Positions 4,558 through 60,655 of a stretch of DNA of 64,000 bases are shown in pieces (within the stretch, counting starts at the first letter, position 1; each line of letters begins with the position of its first letter). A program made the position numbers and the translations under genes. Origin of the DNA: Eledone cirrhosa (taxonomy: Eukaryota); contig OZ024740.1 of the NCBI GenBank assembly GCA_964016885.1, positions 107,756,001 through 107,820,000 of the forward strand, in the 5' to 3' direction. The notes under the pieces were generated by a model. It saw only the letters and a list, made by a program, of their open reading frames with translations. It made no database searches and was not told where the DNA came from.

Positions 4558-4589
<32 letters not shown>

Positions 4590-5244
4590 ACGTTTAACGT
4601 CCGTGTTCCATGCTTGCATGGGTTTGGACGGGGGTAGTCCCACTTGAGGCAAGAGTGATTGTCTTGCTCGCATAGGACTGTCTGGCAGGTTTTCTACAGT
4701 TGGATGCCCTTCCTAACACCAACCACATTTACAGTGTGGGTCTGGGAGGTTTTTACCGTGTTGCCTACACGGCCACATTACAGCGTGGACTGTGTGTTTT
4801 TTTGTCGTGACACTACACGATCTCATTTGTTTCGGCCTGGATGGCGCGGCACCAACATAACTTTACATAGAACGGGGTGGTGTGGATGGGGTGGGGGTGG
4901 TGGCGGGACGGGGTGTAGTTTGTTAGAGATGCCTACTGGCAAGGCGGGTCTTCTCTGTTACTGAGTACCGCCAAAGGTCACGGTCCAGTGACATTGTCTT
5001 GGAGAGGTGTAAGTGTGTGAGGTCGGAGTTTATCAGCTCATCCCATGTTTTTCTAGGTCTGCCTATTCCGTGGCTACCGTCTATCTTTATTGCCCTGCAC
5101 TTTGTAATACAGCTATCGACTTTCATGCGCATCACGTGTCCATACCAACGCAGCCTTCTCTCGAGTAAACAACATCTGATCCCTCTTATCTCTAATTTTT
5201 TCCTTAGTTCGTTTATGCTTTGCCGTTCACGTATATTACTGTTA
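4558..5244 (-). mobile_element. RTE family B, 5'-truncated
   Basis: Encodes [25 protein letters not shown]...RRLRWYGHV. The 3' UTR and (GAT)n tail match 38163-41426. Confidence 0.95.
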
Positions 5245-5297
5245 ATATATGTATATATATATATATGTATATATATATATGTGTATATATATATGTG

Positions 5298-5446: not shown

Positions 5447-6051
5447 GTGTATATATATATAGTATATATATATGTGTATATATATATCTATATATATAAA
5501 GGGAAGATGGACATTGTTTAGTGTACCGAATTTGCATGCTACCCGTTCATCCAATTTTCATGAAACCTCACACATATATAAAACTCAACAGCCAATAAAA
5601 AATCGATAACTTGCTTATTAAGATATCGGTCAAAAAGAGAGATTGAATGTACTTTAGAACATTTTTTGAATATATTGTTCTTTTTGGCATGATATGTCAG
5701 AAATATAGCTACTATACACTTTGGTTATTTTTTGTAACTAAAAAACGGTTCCTTTTGGGTGGATACTTAACGAGAAAAATCCTAGGGTTTTGGACAAGTT
5801 TGTTTCAGGCGCTGTATAGACGCCTATTTTGTCACAGCTTGGTCATGAATTCGTATTCTTTTCCAATAGATATTTTCCGCTCTATAAGGCTCACCAGGAT
5901 ATAAGGCGTATCATTTAAAATCAGGTCCGCGCAACGGCGTGTAAGGCCAACCAGAAAATGCTATCTTCTTTACTTTTAGTCTAGATCTATTACTTCTGTT
6001 AGAGCCGTGATTGATTACCATTGTATTATTTATACACAAGGCTCACCGGTG

Positions 6052-6230
6052 TATAAAGCGCAGAGCTGTTTTTTTTATTAAATTTAATTATTTTAAGTGC
6101 AATTTATAGACGGGAAAATTCGGTAAGTTATTGTAATCATATTTCCAAACCTTCCCATTCACCAGTAACCATGCTAACGAATCTGGTGTCATCTCTCTCT
6201 GTATTTAATCACCTCTCTCTAACCTAACAG
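6052..6230 (+). promoter_or_regulatory. Candidate TATA box, non-coding exon 1 and 5' UTR intron of the Helitron mini-gene
   Basis: TATAAA at 6052-6057; donor CG|GTAAGT at 6123; branch/acceptor CTAACCTAACAG ending at 6230; AATAAA at 6782-6787 after the stop. Confidence 0.45.
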
Positions 6231-6247
6231 CTTCGTTACACGTCGTT

Positions 6248-6737
6248 ATGCCCACACGGAAACGTTCAAGACTTACCTCCAAAAAAGGTACAGCTATTGC
6301 TTTGAGACAACGAATTAGGCGTTCTCAGGTATGAGTTCATTCACAATTGATTAATCCTTTATGCAATATTCTCCCTTAATGTTAGCAAGTACTGCGTTTA
6401 TCCTAACTGTCACCACTTTTAAGCAACTACAACATTCTAATAGTAGTTATATTAAATTTATTGTCTTACCTTCATTCCCTTTTGTTCATGTTAGACTTTT
6501 CTCATTTACTATTGACATTGCCATTGGCTTAGCTAACCAGTAGAATTAATTAATTTTCTCTAGGAAACACCTGCTGAGCGCGAATCTCGACTCGCTGATA
6601 GACGTCTTTCCCGGCTAGTTGAGTCACCAACATCCCGTCAGACGAGGCTTGAGGCTGTGGCAAAGGGCAATAACCCTAGATACAATTTTGATCAACTTTT
6701 TTTCACCTATAGCAAATTTACCGGGACAGGTTTTTAG
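6248..6737 (+). CDS. Predicted spliced 84-aa peptide resembling a Helitron RepHel N-terminus with STPR-like repeats (coding exons 6248-6328 and 6564-6737)
   Basis: ATG at 6248; phase-0 intron GTATGA...GCTAAC...TTTCTCTAG (6329-6563). Joined frame MPTRKRSRLTSKKGTAIALRQRIRRSQ|ETPAERESRLADRRLSRLVESPTSRQTRLEAV...; TAG ends at 6737. Confidence 0.6.
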
Positions 6738-7244
6738 CTACTCAAATCTACTTCAGAGATCACGCATTGATGTAAAAAATCAATAAAACTGAAGCGGGGC
6801 TCAACTTTGCGCAAAAAAAAACAAGGCAAAGTTACACATGGGAAAACTTTTTACAGGAACGTCCTATATTCTTGAAAACTGTCACAAAAGACTCGCCATT
6901 ATGCCGCGGTTAAGAAAAAGGCCCTTTTAATTCTTCTTCTGCACATGTGAGCGCAAAAATTGTAAAAAAAAAAAAACCCTGAAAGTAATCGACATTTTCA
7001 CCCTGCTTTAAATTAACTGAACATTCAATATCAAGCGATTTTGACGTCCGTCAGTCGCGCAGAGAACAATTTCGACGATACACTGTGTAACTACAATTAA
7101 TAAATTACACACCTGTGTCTACTAACCTATTTTTTTCCATTGAAGTTCGAAGTTTTGAACCTGTGATGCGCGGAAAGTAACTTTCACACATTCTAACAGA
7201 CCAAAGGTCGACTTACACCCGGGCAGCGCCGGGTACTTCTGCTA

Positions 7245-7284
<40 letters not shown>

Positions 7285-7355: not shown

Positions 7356-8277
7356 AACAAAGTCAATCTGTAAACGCAGAACTGGATATTTCAAAAAACG
7401 TTGCAACCGGAGGAAGACAGGAAGACGATACTTTGGTTCGTGGTAACGTTCGCTGGCAAAGAACGGGAAAAAACGAATAATACGTCATTAATAAGAGCGG
7501 TGAAAAACAATTACGCGCAAAGACAGAACCACGTTTATCGTATAAAAGAGGTCGTAGACTAATGTTCACTTAGGTGGTGCATAGAGACGTTCTCTGGCAA
7601 TGAACGAAAAAACGAAGATAATAAGTCATATGTGGAGCGTGGAGAACAATAGCACGCAAAGACAAAATCACGTAAATGGTATAGCAGAAGTCGTAGATTC
7701 TAACTAGGAGACCAAATGAATCTCCGCTACAGAGTTAAGAACAAAGTAAATAAATACAATACAGAAGTAATAGGAACAAATAAATACATACACGCAAACA
7801 GATACGTACATACACAAGCATACGCAAAACCTTACCAAGGGTATACAAGACCACGCACATATAAATATGTGTGTGTGTGTATGCTTGTGTCCAAATAAAT
7901 AAATAATTATATAAACGTATATAAGCAAATAAATACGTATATAACAAGCGCACACGCATACCTACATATAAATACACGAATGTTCGGAGACGTAAGTCAA
8001 CTAAAACAAGAAGTACACATATACACACACCCACCATACGTACGAACCTGCACACTCACGCAGACGCAAAACTCCTGTATACACATAGCCAAACCCTAAA
8101 TACCAGAATTTGTAAAAATTATACGCTATAACAGTCAAATATACATACGAGAAGGTATACATACCTTCACAAAACATACGGGTAATATATACTTACCTAT
8201 GCAAATAAGTAAAGGAATAAACAAAACATATACTTAGCTCCCACATCAAGACGTAAAATATCCACGTATAGATCGTG

Positions 8278-15969: not shown

Positions 15970-15973
<4 letters not shown>
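13585..15973 (+). mobile_element. RTE family B, 5'-truncated, open RT frame, 3' UTR cut short
   Basis: Open frame from CTSQH to a stop at 15927 with YADD and the PHD finger. The 3' UTR ends ~45 bp after the stop with no (GAT)n tail. Confidence 0.95.
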
Positions 15974-20282
<4,309 letters not shown>

Positions 20283-28317: not shown

Positions 28318-30993
28318 AATTTCAGGTTATCAATAATGTAGTGATAATATATCATTACGTTAGAGATGAACAGCGTACGTGCAGGTTTGCTCAACAAGTA
28401 TAAATTATATTCCGGAGAAAATGTAGAAAGGATGAATATAAAATAAAAGTGCTTTTGTTAAAAAAGGAATTTATTAGGTATTGACATATGTTTCTGTAAC
28501 AGACCGAATACCTATGTATCGCTGCTTGCATAATCATATAATGTTAGCAAGTATTCGATAGCAAATGTATAATCAGTTGTCACTTCTTCAGAGATTTTGG
28601 ATAAACTGGATAAAATCAGAAAAATTGAAGTATTTATATTAGTAAAATAGGAAGGAACAGAGGGGATAGTATATGACAGATGGTAAAATAATTTACTGCT
28701 AAACAAGTATATGATGGGTTTCTAATGAGAATCCCATGAGTAAATCTAAATAAGAATTTTGGGAGTGCCAATTTTAATCTCTACTTGACCAACTGGACAG
28801 TGGACAGGGCTGGTCATTTGGTGCAGTAGTATTAATTATAAAGTGTCTATTGGGGAAGGGGGAGATTTCGATTGCTACTAAATAACATCAATGCTAGTAG
28901 CCAGCTGGTATATGCATTAGGGAATTGAATCAAGAAATCAGAAATCTCATTTTATCTATAGCAGTTTGTATTAAAAGGTAAATAATAGAAGAGTTGATAG
29001 AATTAAGACTAATAAAGAATGTTCATATCTATTTTGACAATCAAACGGGGATAGAGACAGGCGTTCAATCCTGGTAGTATTTATAATATGAAAATGTAGA
29101 TTTTAAGCGATGGTTACAGTATAACGATCGCTCTATTCTGTTATTTAATAAAATGTTTTTGGATTTCATAATACAAAATAATTCTACATTACATAATTTA
29201 CAAAATTCCTGTCCATGGAAATATGGGGGGGCAGCCACTATTATATCCCATTTTAGGTGAAATTGTTGGTTATTTTCACGCAGCTGCCAAGCCTTGTCTG
29301 CGAGTGTTGTTACATAACGCTGGTTTTCATGTTTTATTGAGTAACGATGTCTATAAAGGCGTGATTTGAAGGAGGTGGCTGTAGATCCCACATAGTACCA
29401 CTTCTGTCTATCCGATTCGATAGTACATTTGTATACGATGTTGCGTTCAAGACACTGATTGTTCAACAGACACATTCCTGGTTGGACACAGTTGCAATTA
29501 TAATTTTGCGTTGTTGTATTGCCATGGATGGGTTGATGAGGTTGCTTAGGTATGACAGGATGTTGTTTGTTGTTTTGTGATGTTATAGCTAATGTTTTAC
29601 GTGTATTGTTATGTGTTGGAAGGCGTTTATACAACCGTTTTGCGTTAAGCTTTTTTATATGTTGTTCAATATTAGGGGCGGTTGAATATGAAAGTCGAAT
29701 AGTGTTAGGGTTTAAGATTTTATTATATTTATGTGATGTTGGAAAGTGTTTTCTAACTAATCTAAAGAATTTTGAGGGTAGATTGGTTTTAATAGAGTTG
29801 TTATAGACCGGGTTGTACCAGATATACTCCTTACATCGCCTTCTGTTTGGTGGTGTGCGACTATTATTGTGTCTATTGCGGTAGTGTATGTATGGTGGTG
29901 ATTCTGTGCTGTTTCTACTCCTATGTGATTTATTTTGGGTGTTTTGGTGATCTTTGACAATATACTCTATATTATCTAGGTGACCGGCTTTCCTAAGTGC
30001 ATCATCATAATACTCGGCATGTTCTTTGAAGGTGTGCTGGTTGGACGACAGACGGGAGATCCTAAGAGAAACATTTCTAGGGATGGATTTAATTATAGAG
30101 AGTGGATGGTTAGAACTCGTATTTACATATTTAAGGTTCTCATTTAGTTTATGGAACGGTTTAATCGTATCTGTATTGAGATTGAAAGTAACATCAAGGA
30201 AATTGAACTCTTTGAGGTTATATTCAAATGTAATATTTAATCCTAGTTCCTTAAAAAACTTTCTGATATTTTTACGCATCCTTTCTAAATTCGGGTTATT
30301 CATATGCTTAACTAATAGGAGCGCATCGTCACGGTAAATTCCACCGTGGAGATCCTTGAATTTTCCTTGTAATCTGTGGGTGATATAAATTCCCACAAGA
30401 TCTGTTACTTCCGCCGAATCATTAGAACCCATATATATCAAAATTAGAAGGTCTATCTTTGCGAACCCAGTAGCTATCATCGAATTTAACTATAGTTTTT
30501 CTCGCTTCCATAATAATTTTAATTTCAGCATCCGTAAGGTCGGAATTATCCTTAGCGAACGAAAGAGCTTCATGTAGAGTATCAGGTGAAATTGAGGAAT
30601 AATATTCATCAATATCAAACTGAATAAATTTTGATTTTTTCTTATCAGTAATGTTATTAAACCATCTTATTGCTTCATGAGTGTTACCCCATAGTTTAAT
30701 CTCTACTTTAACCTTAACTTGGGGGATAATTCTGTCTAGTATATATTTGCTAATTTTACCTATATCAGATTTAGAGGGGCATATAAGTCTAATATTAGGG
30801 TTAGTATCGAAGTTTACCTTGTGGTCCTTCAGGTTGAAGGATGGTATAGCTGGTGTTAAGGGTTGCGTTCTATCGTCAATACAAAGTTTTTTAACGATAT
30901 CACATGCCGAGTTGTTGATGTTTTTAAGTGTGGCTTCATTAGTTTTCCTGTATTTTTTATGCAATTCCTTACGGATGAAGTTATTGTAAGTGT
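28318..30993 (-). mobile_element. Penelope-like element 2 (Naiad-like, GIY-YIG), 5'-truncated and frameshifted
   Basis: [32 protein letters not shown]-x5-C-x5-C, IVY...YVG...FKSRLYRH. Frameshift within a short TA run at ~30435. Confidence 0.92.
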
Positions 30994-35865
<4,872 letters not shown>

Positions 35866-41686: not shown

Positions 41687-43180
<1,494 letters not shown>

Positions 43181-43761: not shown

Positions 43762-43812
43762 TTATATATATATATATATATACACATTATATATATATAT
43801 ATATATATATAC

Positions 43813-43853
<41 letters not shown>

Positions 43854-43874
43854 TATATATATATATATATATAC

Positions 43875-43944
<70 letters not shown>

Positions 43945-43945
43945 T

Positions 43946-44010
<65 letters not shown>

Positions 44011-44052
44011 TATATATATATATATATATATACATTATATATATATATATAC

Positions 44053-44093
<41 letters not shown>

Positions 44094-44302
44094 TATATAT
44101 ATATATATATATATACATTATATATATATATATATATATACATTATATATATATACATTATATATATATATACATTATATATATATATACATTATATATA
44201 TATATACATTATATATATATATACATTATATATATATATATACATTATATATATATATATATACATTATATATATATATACATTATATATATATATATAC
44301 AT

Positions 44303-44338
<36 letters not shown>

Positions 44339-44508
44339 ATATACATACATTATATATATATATACATTATATATATATATATATACATTATATATATATA
44401 TATACATTATATATATATATATACATTATATATATATATACATTATATATATATATATATACATTATATATATATATACATTATATATATATATATATAT
44501 ATATACAT

Positions 44509-44542
<34 letters not shown>

Positions 44543-44585
44543 GATATATATATATACATATATATATATACATATATATATATAC

Positions 44586-44622
44586 ATGCTGATGATAGCT
44601 AACAAGCTTGAAACTAGTACAT
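44586..44622 (+). ncRNA. Minimal hammerhead ribozyme with canonical core
   Basis: ATG-CTGATGA-T-AGCT AACA AGCT-T-GAAAC TA GT-A-CAT; palindromic ACTAGT in stem III. Confidence 0.7.
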
Positions 44623-44931
44623 CGTTCCTGTGTCAGTGTTGAACAAAAAGGTGACATGGTTGCCTTAACACCGTGCAGCATAAATTCAGGCTGTTCAGTT
44701 TGTTTACAAACGAACAAAGCGGGCGCTATAATAAGCGTCCGCTAAACTGATGCGTACATATATGTATGTGTACCTGTATGTATATATATATATGTATATA
44801 TATATATATGCATGCTACTGTACGTCTGTATACATATATGTATGTACGTATACATACATACTTACATTTAAGTAAGTGCCGTACTAAGAGTGAGAAATGA
44901 AATTTCATTTTCCTTTTATTACAACTCTCTA

Positions 44932-45115
<184 letters not shown>

Positions 45116-45118
45116 CAC

Positions 45119-45235
<117 letters not shown>

Positions 45236-45256
45236 GATATACTTATATATATATAC

Positions 45257-45295
<39 letters not shown>

Positions 45296-45297
45296 CT

Positions 45298-45329
<32 letters not shown>

Positions 45330-45368
45330 CATATATATATACATATATATATATACATATATATATAC

Positions 45369-45403
<35 letters not shown>

Positions 45404-45408
45404 CATAC

Positions 45409-45491
<83 letters not shown>

Positions 45492-45540
45492 CACATTATA
45501 TATATATATATACACATTATATATATATATATATATACAC

Positions 45541-45657
<117 letters not shown>

Positions 45658-45791
45658 TATATATATATATACATTTTATATATATATATATAATATATAT
45701 ATATATATATACACATTATATATATATATATATATACACATTATATATATATATATATATACACATTATATATATATATATATATATACAC

Positions 45792-45828
<37 letters not shown>

Positions 45829-45883
45829 TATATATATATATATATATACACATTATATATATACATTATATATATATATATAC

Positions 45884-45971
<88 letters not shown>

Positions 45972-46106
45972 TATATATATATATATACATTTTATATATA
46001 TATATATATACATTTTATATATATATATATATAATATATATATATATATATACACATATATATATATATATATATACACATCATATATATATATATATAC
46101 ACACAT

Positions 46107-46139
<33 letters not shown>

Positions 46140-46206
46140 TATATATATATATATATACACATTATATACATATATATATATACATTATATATATATATAT
46201 ATATAC

Positions 46207-46245
<39 letters not shown>

Positions 46246-46337
46246 TATATATATACATTATATATATATATATATTATATATATATACATTATATATATA
46301 TACATTATATATATATATACATTATATATATATATAT

Positions 46338-46410
<73 letters not shown>

Positions 46411-46412
<2 letters not shown>

Positions 46413-50705: not shown

Positions 50706-51858
50706 TGGCCATGCTCAGTGTGTAGGAAAGGCGTAGGTAGAAACTCCATTTTATGTCCCAAATGCAAAGTATGGGTGCATAAAAGATGTAGTGGGATCAC
50801 AGGTAAGCTAACTAAGAACATAGATTTTACATGTGGCCGGTGCTCTGGTGCAATAAGTAGCAGCAAGAGCCCACAAAATACTAGCTCTTTCAATTGCGCA
50901 GAGGGTTCTATAGAAATAGTGGACAGCTTCCGTTACCTGGGCGACAAAATCAGCAGTGGGGGAGGGTGCTCTGAAAGTACAGTAGCTAGAGTCAGAACTG
51001 GTTGGAAAAAGTTCAGAGAGCTTATACCACTATTAGCCGCTAAAGGGTTCTCCCTAAGAATGAAAGGCAGGTTGTATGATGCCTGCATACGAACAGCAAT
51101 GTTGCATGGCAGTGAGACCTGGGCATTGTGTGCAGAGGATATACGCAGACTAGAGAGGAACGAAGCTTTCATGCTCCGCTGGATGTGTAATAGTAACATA
51201 CGTGAACGGCAAAGCATAAGCGAACTAAGGAAAAAATTAGAAATAAGAGGGATCAGATGTTGTTTACTCGAGAGAAGGCTACGTTGGTATGGTCATGTGA
51301 TGCGCATGAAAGACGACAGCTGTAAAACAAAGTGCAGGGCAATAAAGATAGACGGTAGCTACGGAGTAGGCAGACCCAGAAAAACCTGGGACGAGCTGAT
51401 AAATTCTGACCTCACACACTTACACCTCTCCAAGACAATGTCACTGGACCGAGACCTTTGGCGGTACTCAGTAATAGAGAAGACCCGCCTTACCTAAATA
51501 CAAAGTAAAACCTACTACAGCCAGTAGGCATCTCTAACAAAATACACCCCCCCCCATCCACACCGCCCCTTCAATGTAAAGTTATGTTGATCCAGGCCGA
51601 AACAAATGAGATCGTGTAGGTGTCACGACAAAAAACACACAGTCCACTCTGTAATGTGGCCGTGTAGGTAACACGGTAAAAACCTCCCAGTCCCACACTG
51701 TAAATGTGGTTGGTGTTAGGAAGAGCATCCAGCTGTAGAAAACCCGCCAGACAGTCCTATGCGAGCAAGACAACCACTCTTGCCTCAAGTGGGAAAACTC
51801 CCGTCCAAACCCATGCAAGCGTGGAACATGGACGTTAAACAATGATGATGATGATGAT
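50706..51858 (+). mobile_element. RTE family B variant, 5'-truncated
   Basis: ORF to 51497, 3' UTR, (GAT)n tail. Confidence 0.95.
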
Positions 51859-59879: not shown

Positions 59880-60655
59880 TAAGGCAGACTGTATGATGTG
59901 TGCATACGAACGGCAATGTTGCATGGTAATGAGACCTGGGTTGCTGTGTGCAGAAGACTTGCGTACATTGGAAAGAAATAAAGCTTGCATGCTCCGTTGG
60001 ATGTGTAATAGTAATTTATGTGAACAGCAAAGCATAAACAAACTGAGAGAAAAACTAGGCATAAGAGGAATCGGATGCAATGCGCAGTAGAGGAGATTGC
60101 ATTGGTATGGACATGTGATGCGTATGAAGGATGACAGCTGTATAAAAAGATGCAGAGCACTCAAAATTGATGGAAGCCTTGGTCGGAAGACCCAGGAAGA
60201 TTTGGGATGAGGTAATAAAAGCTGACCTTGCTCAATTGCACCTCTCAAAAACAATGACACAGACTGAGATCTAGCATTATGCAGTAATACAGAAGACCTG
60301 CCTTCCCATGGGCACAGGCAGAAGCTGAAGCATATATATAGTGTGCACCACCTCCACCCCACCCTCCCATGAGGACAGACTGTAGCATACATCTAGAGAA
60401 GCCTCCAGCTCATACTGTAAAGTGGTCGTGATGGCGAAAGAACAAAAAATTCCTAGCCCACACTGTAAAGTGGTCGTGTAGGTGTCATGACAAAAAGCAC
60501 CTAGCCCACACTGTAAATGTGATTGGCATTACGAAGGGCATCCAGCCATAGAAACCAAGCCAGGAACAATTCTGAGTGAGCAAGACTCGGACACCTGACC
60601 CAACTTGCTTCTAACCCATGTTAGTGCGGAAAAATGGACGTTAAACGGTGATGAT
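59880..60655 (+). mobile_element. Older RTE 3' fragment with stops
   Basis: [16 protein letters not shown]...WYGHVMRMK; 3' UTR with three subrepeats; ends GGACGTTAAACGGTGATG. Confidence 0.88.

Follow-up and report, generated by a model that had tools for sequence, protein, structure and literature searches.

A complete-looking mini-gene in a non-autonomous Helitron of Eledone cirrhosa is most likely a truncated RepHel 5′ end carried as a neutral passenger

The question raised by this locus is whether a short three-exon gene, complete in appearance and lying inside a non-autonomous Helitron of Eledone cirrhosa, is a gene in its own right. The first-pass annotation had proposed that it may still yield an AT-binding micro-protein with STPR-like repeats. 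According to our analysis of the window, the whole 64-kb stretch of DNA in which the element lies, the mini-gene is very probably the 5′ end of a RepHel gene, fused by an internal deletion to non-coding 3′ DNA and carried as a neutral passenger in about 200 copies.

Sequence inspection and genome search identified the element as a copy of a non-autonomous Helitron family, here called family A, with a standard length of about 2.52 kb. It is flanked by (TA)n arrays on both sides, and a second copy is absent from the 64-kb window. Its outline is the following.

5487..7245, plus strand: non-autonomous Helitron copy of family A, from TC to CTAG, in a (TA)n array (sequence and copy alignment).
5588..5589, plus strand: site of a deletion of about 690 bp relative to standard copies, private to the window copy and upstream of the promoter (comparison with family copies).
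7218..7245, plus strand: 3′ hairpin (7218-7233) located 8 nt before the CTAG terminus (7242-7245) (sequence and copy alignment).

The same ends, starting with TC as at position 5487, were found in most of the 26 full copies. The TC/CTRR termini, the 3′ hairpin, the insertion between A and T, the lack of Rep and helicase, and the ends held in common with an autonomous RepHel element are those of a non-autonomous HLE1 Helitron. Used as a genome query, the element retrieved copies at 94-99% identity (40 of 1064 candidates scored), and a 19-nt pattern across the internal junction of family A gave 197 exact matches, with 0 for the reversed control. Set against 1064 candidates, these 197 matches indicate that the candidates include other families sharing parts of the element. 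An Rfam search of the loci L001, L013, L081 and L191 produced no match at the gathering score, and thus no hammerhead. Elsewhere in the window, degenerate (TA)n arrays of great length (1.7-4.9 kb) are located at 30993-35865, 43763-46411 and 15972-17640. Copies of another short repeat, with internal tandem units of 48-112 bp, lie at 4560-5245, 41792-42049, 51613-51709 and 60407-60517, and one of them adjoins an (ATC)n run on the immediate left side of the Helitron.

The gene anatomy read by the first-pass annotation, from the TATA box through two GT-AG introns with CTAAC motifs (6219, 6224 and 6533), the ATG and the in-frame splice to the stop and AATAAA, is present in full and at the same positions.

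6052..6058, plus strand: TATA box TATAAAG, likely the RepHel promoter of the parent element (motif; also in most parent and family B copies).
6123..6230, plus strand: predicted 5′-UTR intron, GTAAGT...CTAAC...CAG (motif quality only).
6248..6328, plus strand: first RepHel coding exon, ATG at 6248, 81 nt or 27 codons, phase 0, with a basic N-terminus (comparison with the parent and distant families).
6329..6563, plus strand: phase-0 RepHel intron, 235 nt, GT-AG (same position in distant families, absent from intronless ones).
6564..6651, plus strand: start of the long RepHel exon, a 19-aa repeat and a 10-aa half repeat, with a 69-bp unit lost within 6621-6651 (copy alignment).
6649..6651, plus strand: deletion junction with TTG microhomology, where about 5.6 kb of the parent, including Rep and helicase, are lost (alignment to the parent).
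6652..6737, plus strand: 28-codon tail and stop (TAG, 6735-6737), from the non-coding 3′ region of the parent (alignment to the parent).
6782..6787, plus strand: AATAAA from the 3′ region of the parent, one of five in a standard copy (sequence and alignment).

The spliced frame of the window copy encodes the basic product that had been described, 84 aa long, in which RKRSR occupies residues 4-8 and the E(T/S)PxxRxxRL motif occurs twice. The standard of the family is a 107-aa frame with three such repeat starts, found in 18 of the 26 full copies aligned, and the window copy, short of one 69-bp unit, is left with about 1.5 repeats.

In regard to the origin of these parts, DNA contigs showed a loose end at 6649, and a pattern search with that end gave 132 matches, one of them 4 kb behind a Rep domain. 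The parent located in this way (L080 and L081) is an 8.18-kb RepHel Helitron, represented by about 12 near-full copies in the 110 candidates that were scored. A standard family A copy consists of the first 1915 bp of the parent (96.2% identity) and its last 602 bp (96.7%), joined at a TTG common to both sides, a microhomology of 3 nt. The description of the element as a deletion derivative is thereby confirmed. Parent copies carry the same TATA box, introns and 27-codon exon, followed by an exon that stays open for up to 687 codons before a break. This exon 3 matches Helraiser (7lcc) from Helraiser residue 25 onwards (E 5e-22) and continues into Helitron_like_N and PIF1, so the repeats are, as had been suspected, the STPR-like start of RepHel; an independent accessory gene next to RepHel was considered and rejected, as the exon runs straight into RepHel. 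None of the 11 fetched parent copies has an open frame of more than 979 codons, roughly 1500 being expected. RepHel contributes the first 79 codons of the product in a standard copy and 56 in the window copy; the remaining 28 codons, together with the stop and the AATAAA, derive from parental DNA located 1.4 kb past the stop codon of RepHel. The anatomy of a complete-looking three-exon gene is real; the gene in its own right is not, its tail being an accidental read-through into non-coding DNA.

The parent and its relatives show some further structures. A hairpin with CTAG lies inside the parent at 7459-7486 (approximately L081:1175-1200; G000:C4:257238174-257238197), about 690 bp before the real end, and the mini-gene tail and AATAAA are located behind it. 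The same downstream DNA continues in all 20 matches examined of 24, none of which uses it as an end, and it looks like a bypassed relict end. Another family of the same genome holds an uninterrupted RepHel frame of 1718 codons with 11 STPR stretches, Rep and PIF1 (L068:3158-8311, plus strand). On C16, C19, C20 and C27 of G000 (L041-L055), dozens of near-identical Rep matches form same-strand runs with a spacing of about 100-200 kb, which suggests that a Helitron forms part of a tandem or segmental repeat of great length.

Majority sequences of family A and of the parent differ in two of 78 codons, both times by an amino-acid change, and median divergence from the own majority is 1.0-1.1% in family A and 1.2% in the parent. 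By these values the two are equally young, family A outnumbering the parent about 16 to 1 at the same age. We infer that a single deletion, probably during repair or replication at the 3-nt microhomology, would have created a short element with both ends intact, which RepHel from full-length copies would have moved in trans in the same burst as the parent. Its gene-like look would be owed to the inherited promoter and introns, with a stop and AATAAA lying by chance downstream in A+T-rich DNA. The window copy then lost one unit of the repeat, the likely cause being slippage or recombination among its units. Such a loss fits the variable repeat number seen in L192 and L228; the number of N-terminal RepHel repeats varies widely among copies and families, with several extra 69-bp units in L192.

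Whether the frame has been maintained was evaluated in 100 of the 197 junction matches, taken as the first by position, with junction codons excluded and the neutral expectation taken from the element's own non-coding parts. Distinct substitutions comprised 161 amino-acid changes, 15 stops and 53 silent changes, at a neutral silent share of 0.232. The resulting omega (dN/dS) of the 107-aa frame is 1.0 (95% CI 0.73-1.39), with 0.96 for the repeats and 1.03 for the tail. Stops were not depleted (15 of 229, against 5% expected), and neither were frameshifting indels (16 of 20 within the frame, against 166 of 194 outside). The 20 variants common to at least three copies include no stop, an uninformative count with about one expected. 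Fully intact copies, with TATA, splice ends, ATG, 107 codons and AATAAA, make up 53 of the 100, while the frame or start is broken in 34 and the region is partly missing in six. Among the 94 scorable copies, the TATA box is lost in three, the ends of intron 1 in two and the ends of intron 2 in four. The splice ends are intact in most copies. The mini-gene frame shows no constraint and decays neutrally, as in a young family, and selection on a handful of copies could go unseen in such a comparison.

Transcription was inspected in five sequencing runs that contain contigs of the stretch. For a TCTP exon used as a control, the X1 contig coincides exactly with the exon, has a loose end at either border and leaves the unique parts of the introns without coverage, so X1 behaves as spliced RNA; the X2 and X4 contigs span exon and intron. 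At the element, a 1421-nt X1 contig that begins some 640 nt upstream of the TATA box crosses both predicted introns unspliced. The contigs of X1, X2, X3 and X5 showed no joint at 6122/6231 or 6328/6564, contigs being a form in which rare variants are dropped and X1 representing one sample, so that spliced forms may occur elsewhere. The X1 contig fits read-through of one copy inside another transcript.

Furthermore, the repeats themselves are reduced. With exon 3 only, the Pfam STPRs model (PF21107) gives 12.8 bits for the window copy, 15.9 for the standard copy and 26.8 (E 7e-6) for the parent, at a cut-off of 27, and other RepHels of the genome reach up to 166.9 bits in the same frame as Rep (L068, L075). 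The parent lies just under the cut-off and the window copy well under it. Repeat lengths are 19 and 10 aa in the window copy and 19, 23 and 10 aa in the standard copy, falling short of three or four tandem 23-aa repeats. In the portions of the FMBP-1 study available to us, the silkworm protein binds DNA with three or four 23-aa helices, 4 bp each, through R6, R9, L10, M13, S14, Y16, A17, R20 and L21, and its STPR binds (atat)n and (tata)n at 97-340 nM (PMC4856987). The repeats of family A retain E1, T/S2, R6, R9 and L10; M13, S14, Y16, A17 and R20 are not kept in the one full repeat, where L21 is. A PDB search gave no match up to E 10 for exon 3 of the window copy, and for that of the standard copy only FMBP-1 at E 0.85; a homologous-protein search with the standard exon 3 gave 17 candidates (lengths 44-140), none at E 1e-3. 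The available text on Helraiser states that the N-terminal 489 aa are required for DNA binding (PMC4778049), and the family A stub amounts to only the first sixth of that region. Specific DNA binding by the 84-aa product of the window copy is unlikely, and weak binding by the basic 107-aa form would be possible. With neutral decay in 100 copies, a tail read by accident from non-coding DNA, 1.5 sub-threshold repeats and an unspliced RNA-like contig, the reading as a complete or maintained gene for an AT-binding micro-protein is not supported.

A related possibility, which we regard as improbable, is a repressor comparable to KP, the protein of a P-element deletion derivative. Intact copies would be transcribed from the RepHel promoter, probably in the germline, and the 107-aa peptide would bind (TA)n or the TA-rich left end and compete with RepHel, thereby damping the family. 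The layout, with a promoter, a truncated N-terminal part and a short new tail, is that of KP as far as the consulted text describes it (PMC5427502). The 53 intact copies in 100, the abundance of a single deletion variant with 197 junction matches, the binding of silkworm STPR to TA repeats (PMC4856987, in the part cited above), the retention of the gene start in two independent families and the lack of a frame above 979 codons in all 11 fetched parent copies all speak in its favor. However, the frame is unconstrained at an omega of 1.0 over 100 copies, and the repeats are cut to 19, 23 and 10 aa or 19 and 10 aa, against the three or four complete helices of FMBP-1. The one full repeat lacks Y16, R20 and the M13/S14/A17 pocket. 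What remains of the N-terminal domain in RepHel, the CxxC...CC segment included, has been deleted, and the RNA-like contig is unspliced. In its boldest form, to which we give equally little credence, family A would be the Helitron counterpart of KP, with about a hundred intact copies giving rise to a spliced germline mRNA; its product, an STPR-like peptide of 107 aa, would sit on TA tracts and on the left ends of Helitrons, compete with RepHel and have contributed to the end of the burst. A peptide that is made and active would represent a self-encoded Helitron repressor, and the literature searched, mostly outside subscription papers, holds no report of a truncated Helitron transposase as a repressor.

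As the source of a truncated product able to bind DNA, family A could be surpassed by family B, which arose by an independent, older deletion (2.3% divergence; about 40 rows counted by eye, nine fetched). In all nine fetched copies (L195-L203) family B keeps the promoter, the introns, 3-7 repeats and the CxxC...CC segment. An intact product would measure at least about 236 aa, and of the 3′ end only some 100 bp remain. On the other hand, L093, L095 and older elements of 2-3.5 kb have lost the whole gene start. Retention of the gene start in families A and B and its loss in other derivatives indicate that it is recurrent and unneeded for spread.

It is also conceivable, with about the same small likelihood as a repressor, that the peptide is irrelevant and that the retained promoter and splice donor are active, the elements acting as mobile promoters or exon traps, or transcription of the left part aiding movement. 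Promoter and donors are intact in most copies, exon trapping by a promoter and donor has a precedent in HelibatN3 according to the text available (PMC4778049), and such activity would account for two families keeping the region. Against it, the core promoter and exon 1 accumulate mutations no more slowly than the DNA in front of them (singleton rates of 0.56% and 0.54%), promoter-less derivatives have also spread, and the RNA-like contig starts upstream of the TATA box.

The splicing history of the gene start was followed in distant RepHel families, nine copies of which were fetched at about 45-53% protein identity (L231 was left unscored). In L227, L228, L229, L232 and L233, a 27-codon basic first exon has its GT donor at the same codon, and introns of 93-129 nt, unrelated in sequence, have their AG end before the first repeat. 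A related first exon with a longer and less clear intron is present in L225, L226 and L230. Three other RepHel families are intronless, with a homologous N-terminus in one piece. As the 27th-codon position recurs in distant families and the N-terminus is contiguous in intronless ones, the status of intron 2 as a genuine intron of the RepHel gene is well supported, and intron 1 and the transcription start are predicted from motif quality alone. In addition, the exon 3 frame starts directly behind a stop, so the parent needs the splice. The splice model of the first-pass annotation is therefore sound, the same exons joining in frame to the long RepHel exon of the parent and the 27th-codon intron being found in families of about 45% identity. 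A phase-0 intron after codon 27 occurs in some RepHel families (L227-L233) and not in others (L068, L069, L072), with unrelated intron sequences, a distribution pointing to intron gain or loss inside Helitrons. The idea that the gene signals are a chance pattern without splicing history, for which the absence of a spliced contig and the frequency of AATAAA (5) and TATAAA (2) in a standard copy could be quoted, can practically be discarded, since it is refuted for intron 2 by the distant and intronless families and since the parent requires the splice.

The reading of the mini-gene as a neutral passenger has to face several objections of its own. Most copies of any transposon are expected to decay neutrally after insertion, and a few copies or the source copy may be under selection. 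About half of the copies keep every signal, so that some transcription and translation are plausible; family B also kept promoter, introns and repeats; and family A outnumbers its parent about 16-fold. As a passenger, the mini-gene is an example of a deletion turning the start of a transposase into a perfect-looking small gene, and a warning for gene prediction, which would annotate about a hundred copies as intact genes of 107 aa. The comparison also provided the exon structure of RepHel 5′ ends in the Eledone cirrhosa genome.

A more promising lead on Helitron target choice is the STPR-like arm of the parent, together with the strong tie of the insertions to TA runs. A T follows the 3′ end in 83 of the 86 copies with a readable end, and an A precedes TC. 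In 71 of these 86, a TA run of at least eight letters follows the 3′ end, against a rough background, not a genome sample, of about 10% of A|T sites in long fetched loci and 33% in the window. Taken with the known affinity of STPR for (TA)n, this preference makes the repeat arm of the complete transposase a candidate targeting module, which, if true, would aim these Helitrons at TA microsatellites. All RepHel families seen in the genome carry such repeats, leaving no contrasting family. No report of TA targeting by Helitrons appeared in the literature searched, again mostly outside subscription papers.

In comparison with known systems, non-autonomous Helitrons have already been described, for example HelibatN1-N3 with Helibat1/Helraiser (PMC4778049; PMC11417382). 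As in HelibatN1-N3, in so far as the available portions describe them, family A has TC...CTAG ends and a 3′ hairpin, inserts between A and T, lacks Rep and helicase, and exceeds its parent by far in copy number. In contrast to them, it keeps its own promoter, two introns and the first 79 codons, not a captured host promoter, and is strongly tied to TA runs. The Bombyx FMBP-1 STPR (PF21107; PDB 5d23) shares with family A E1, T/S2, R6, R9 and L10 per repeat and the 23-residue step, judging from the portions consulted (PMC4856987). Family A differs in having 1.5 (window copy) or 2.5 (standard copy) repeats, one of them shortened to 19 aa, a sub-cut-off score and other residues at the second-half contacts. 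The HELIANO study, in its available part, reports STPRs as stably carried, almost only in HLE1, and counts them with the domains encoded by ORFs separate from that of the transposase (PMC11417382). Here, however, they are found in the RepHel frame itself (L068, L075) or behind a short first exon.

A case similar to the Drosophila KP is the maize En-I102 repressor. For KP, the text available describes a protein shown to repress (PMC5427502). Likewise, family A is one abundant internal-deletion variant with a potential transposase N-terminus and a short new tail; unlike KP, it has an unconstrained frame and lacks most of the N-terminal domain, the two being likened by layout alone. From its sequence, the element can be regarded as a member of the non-autonomous HLE1 class with a KP-like layout.
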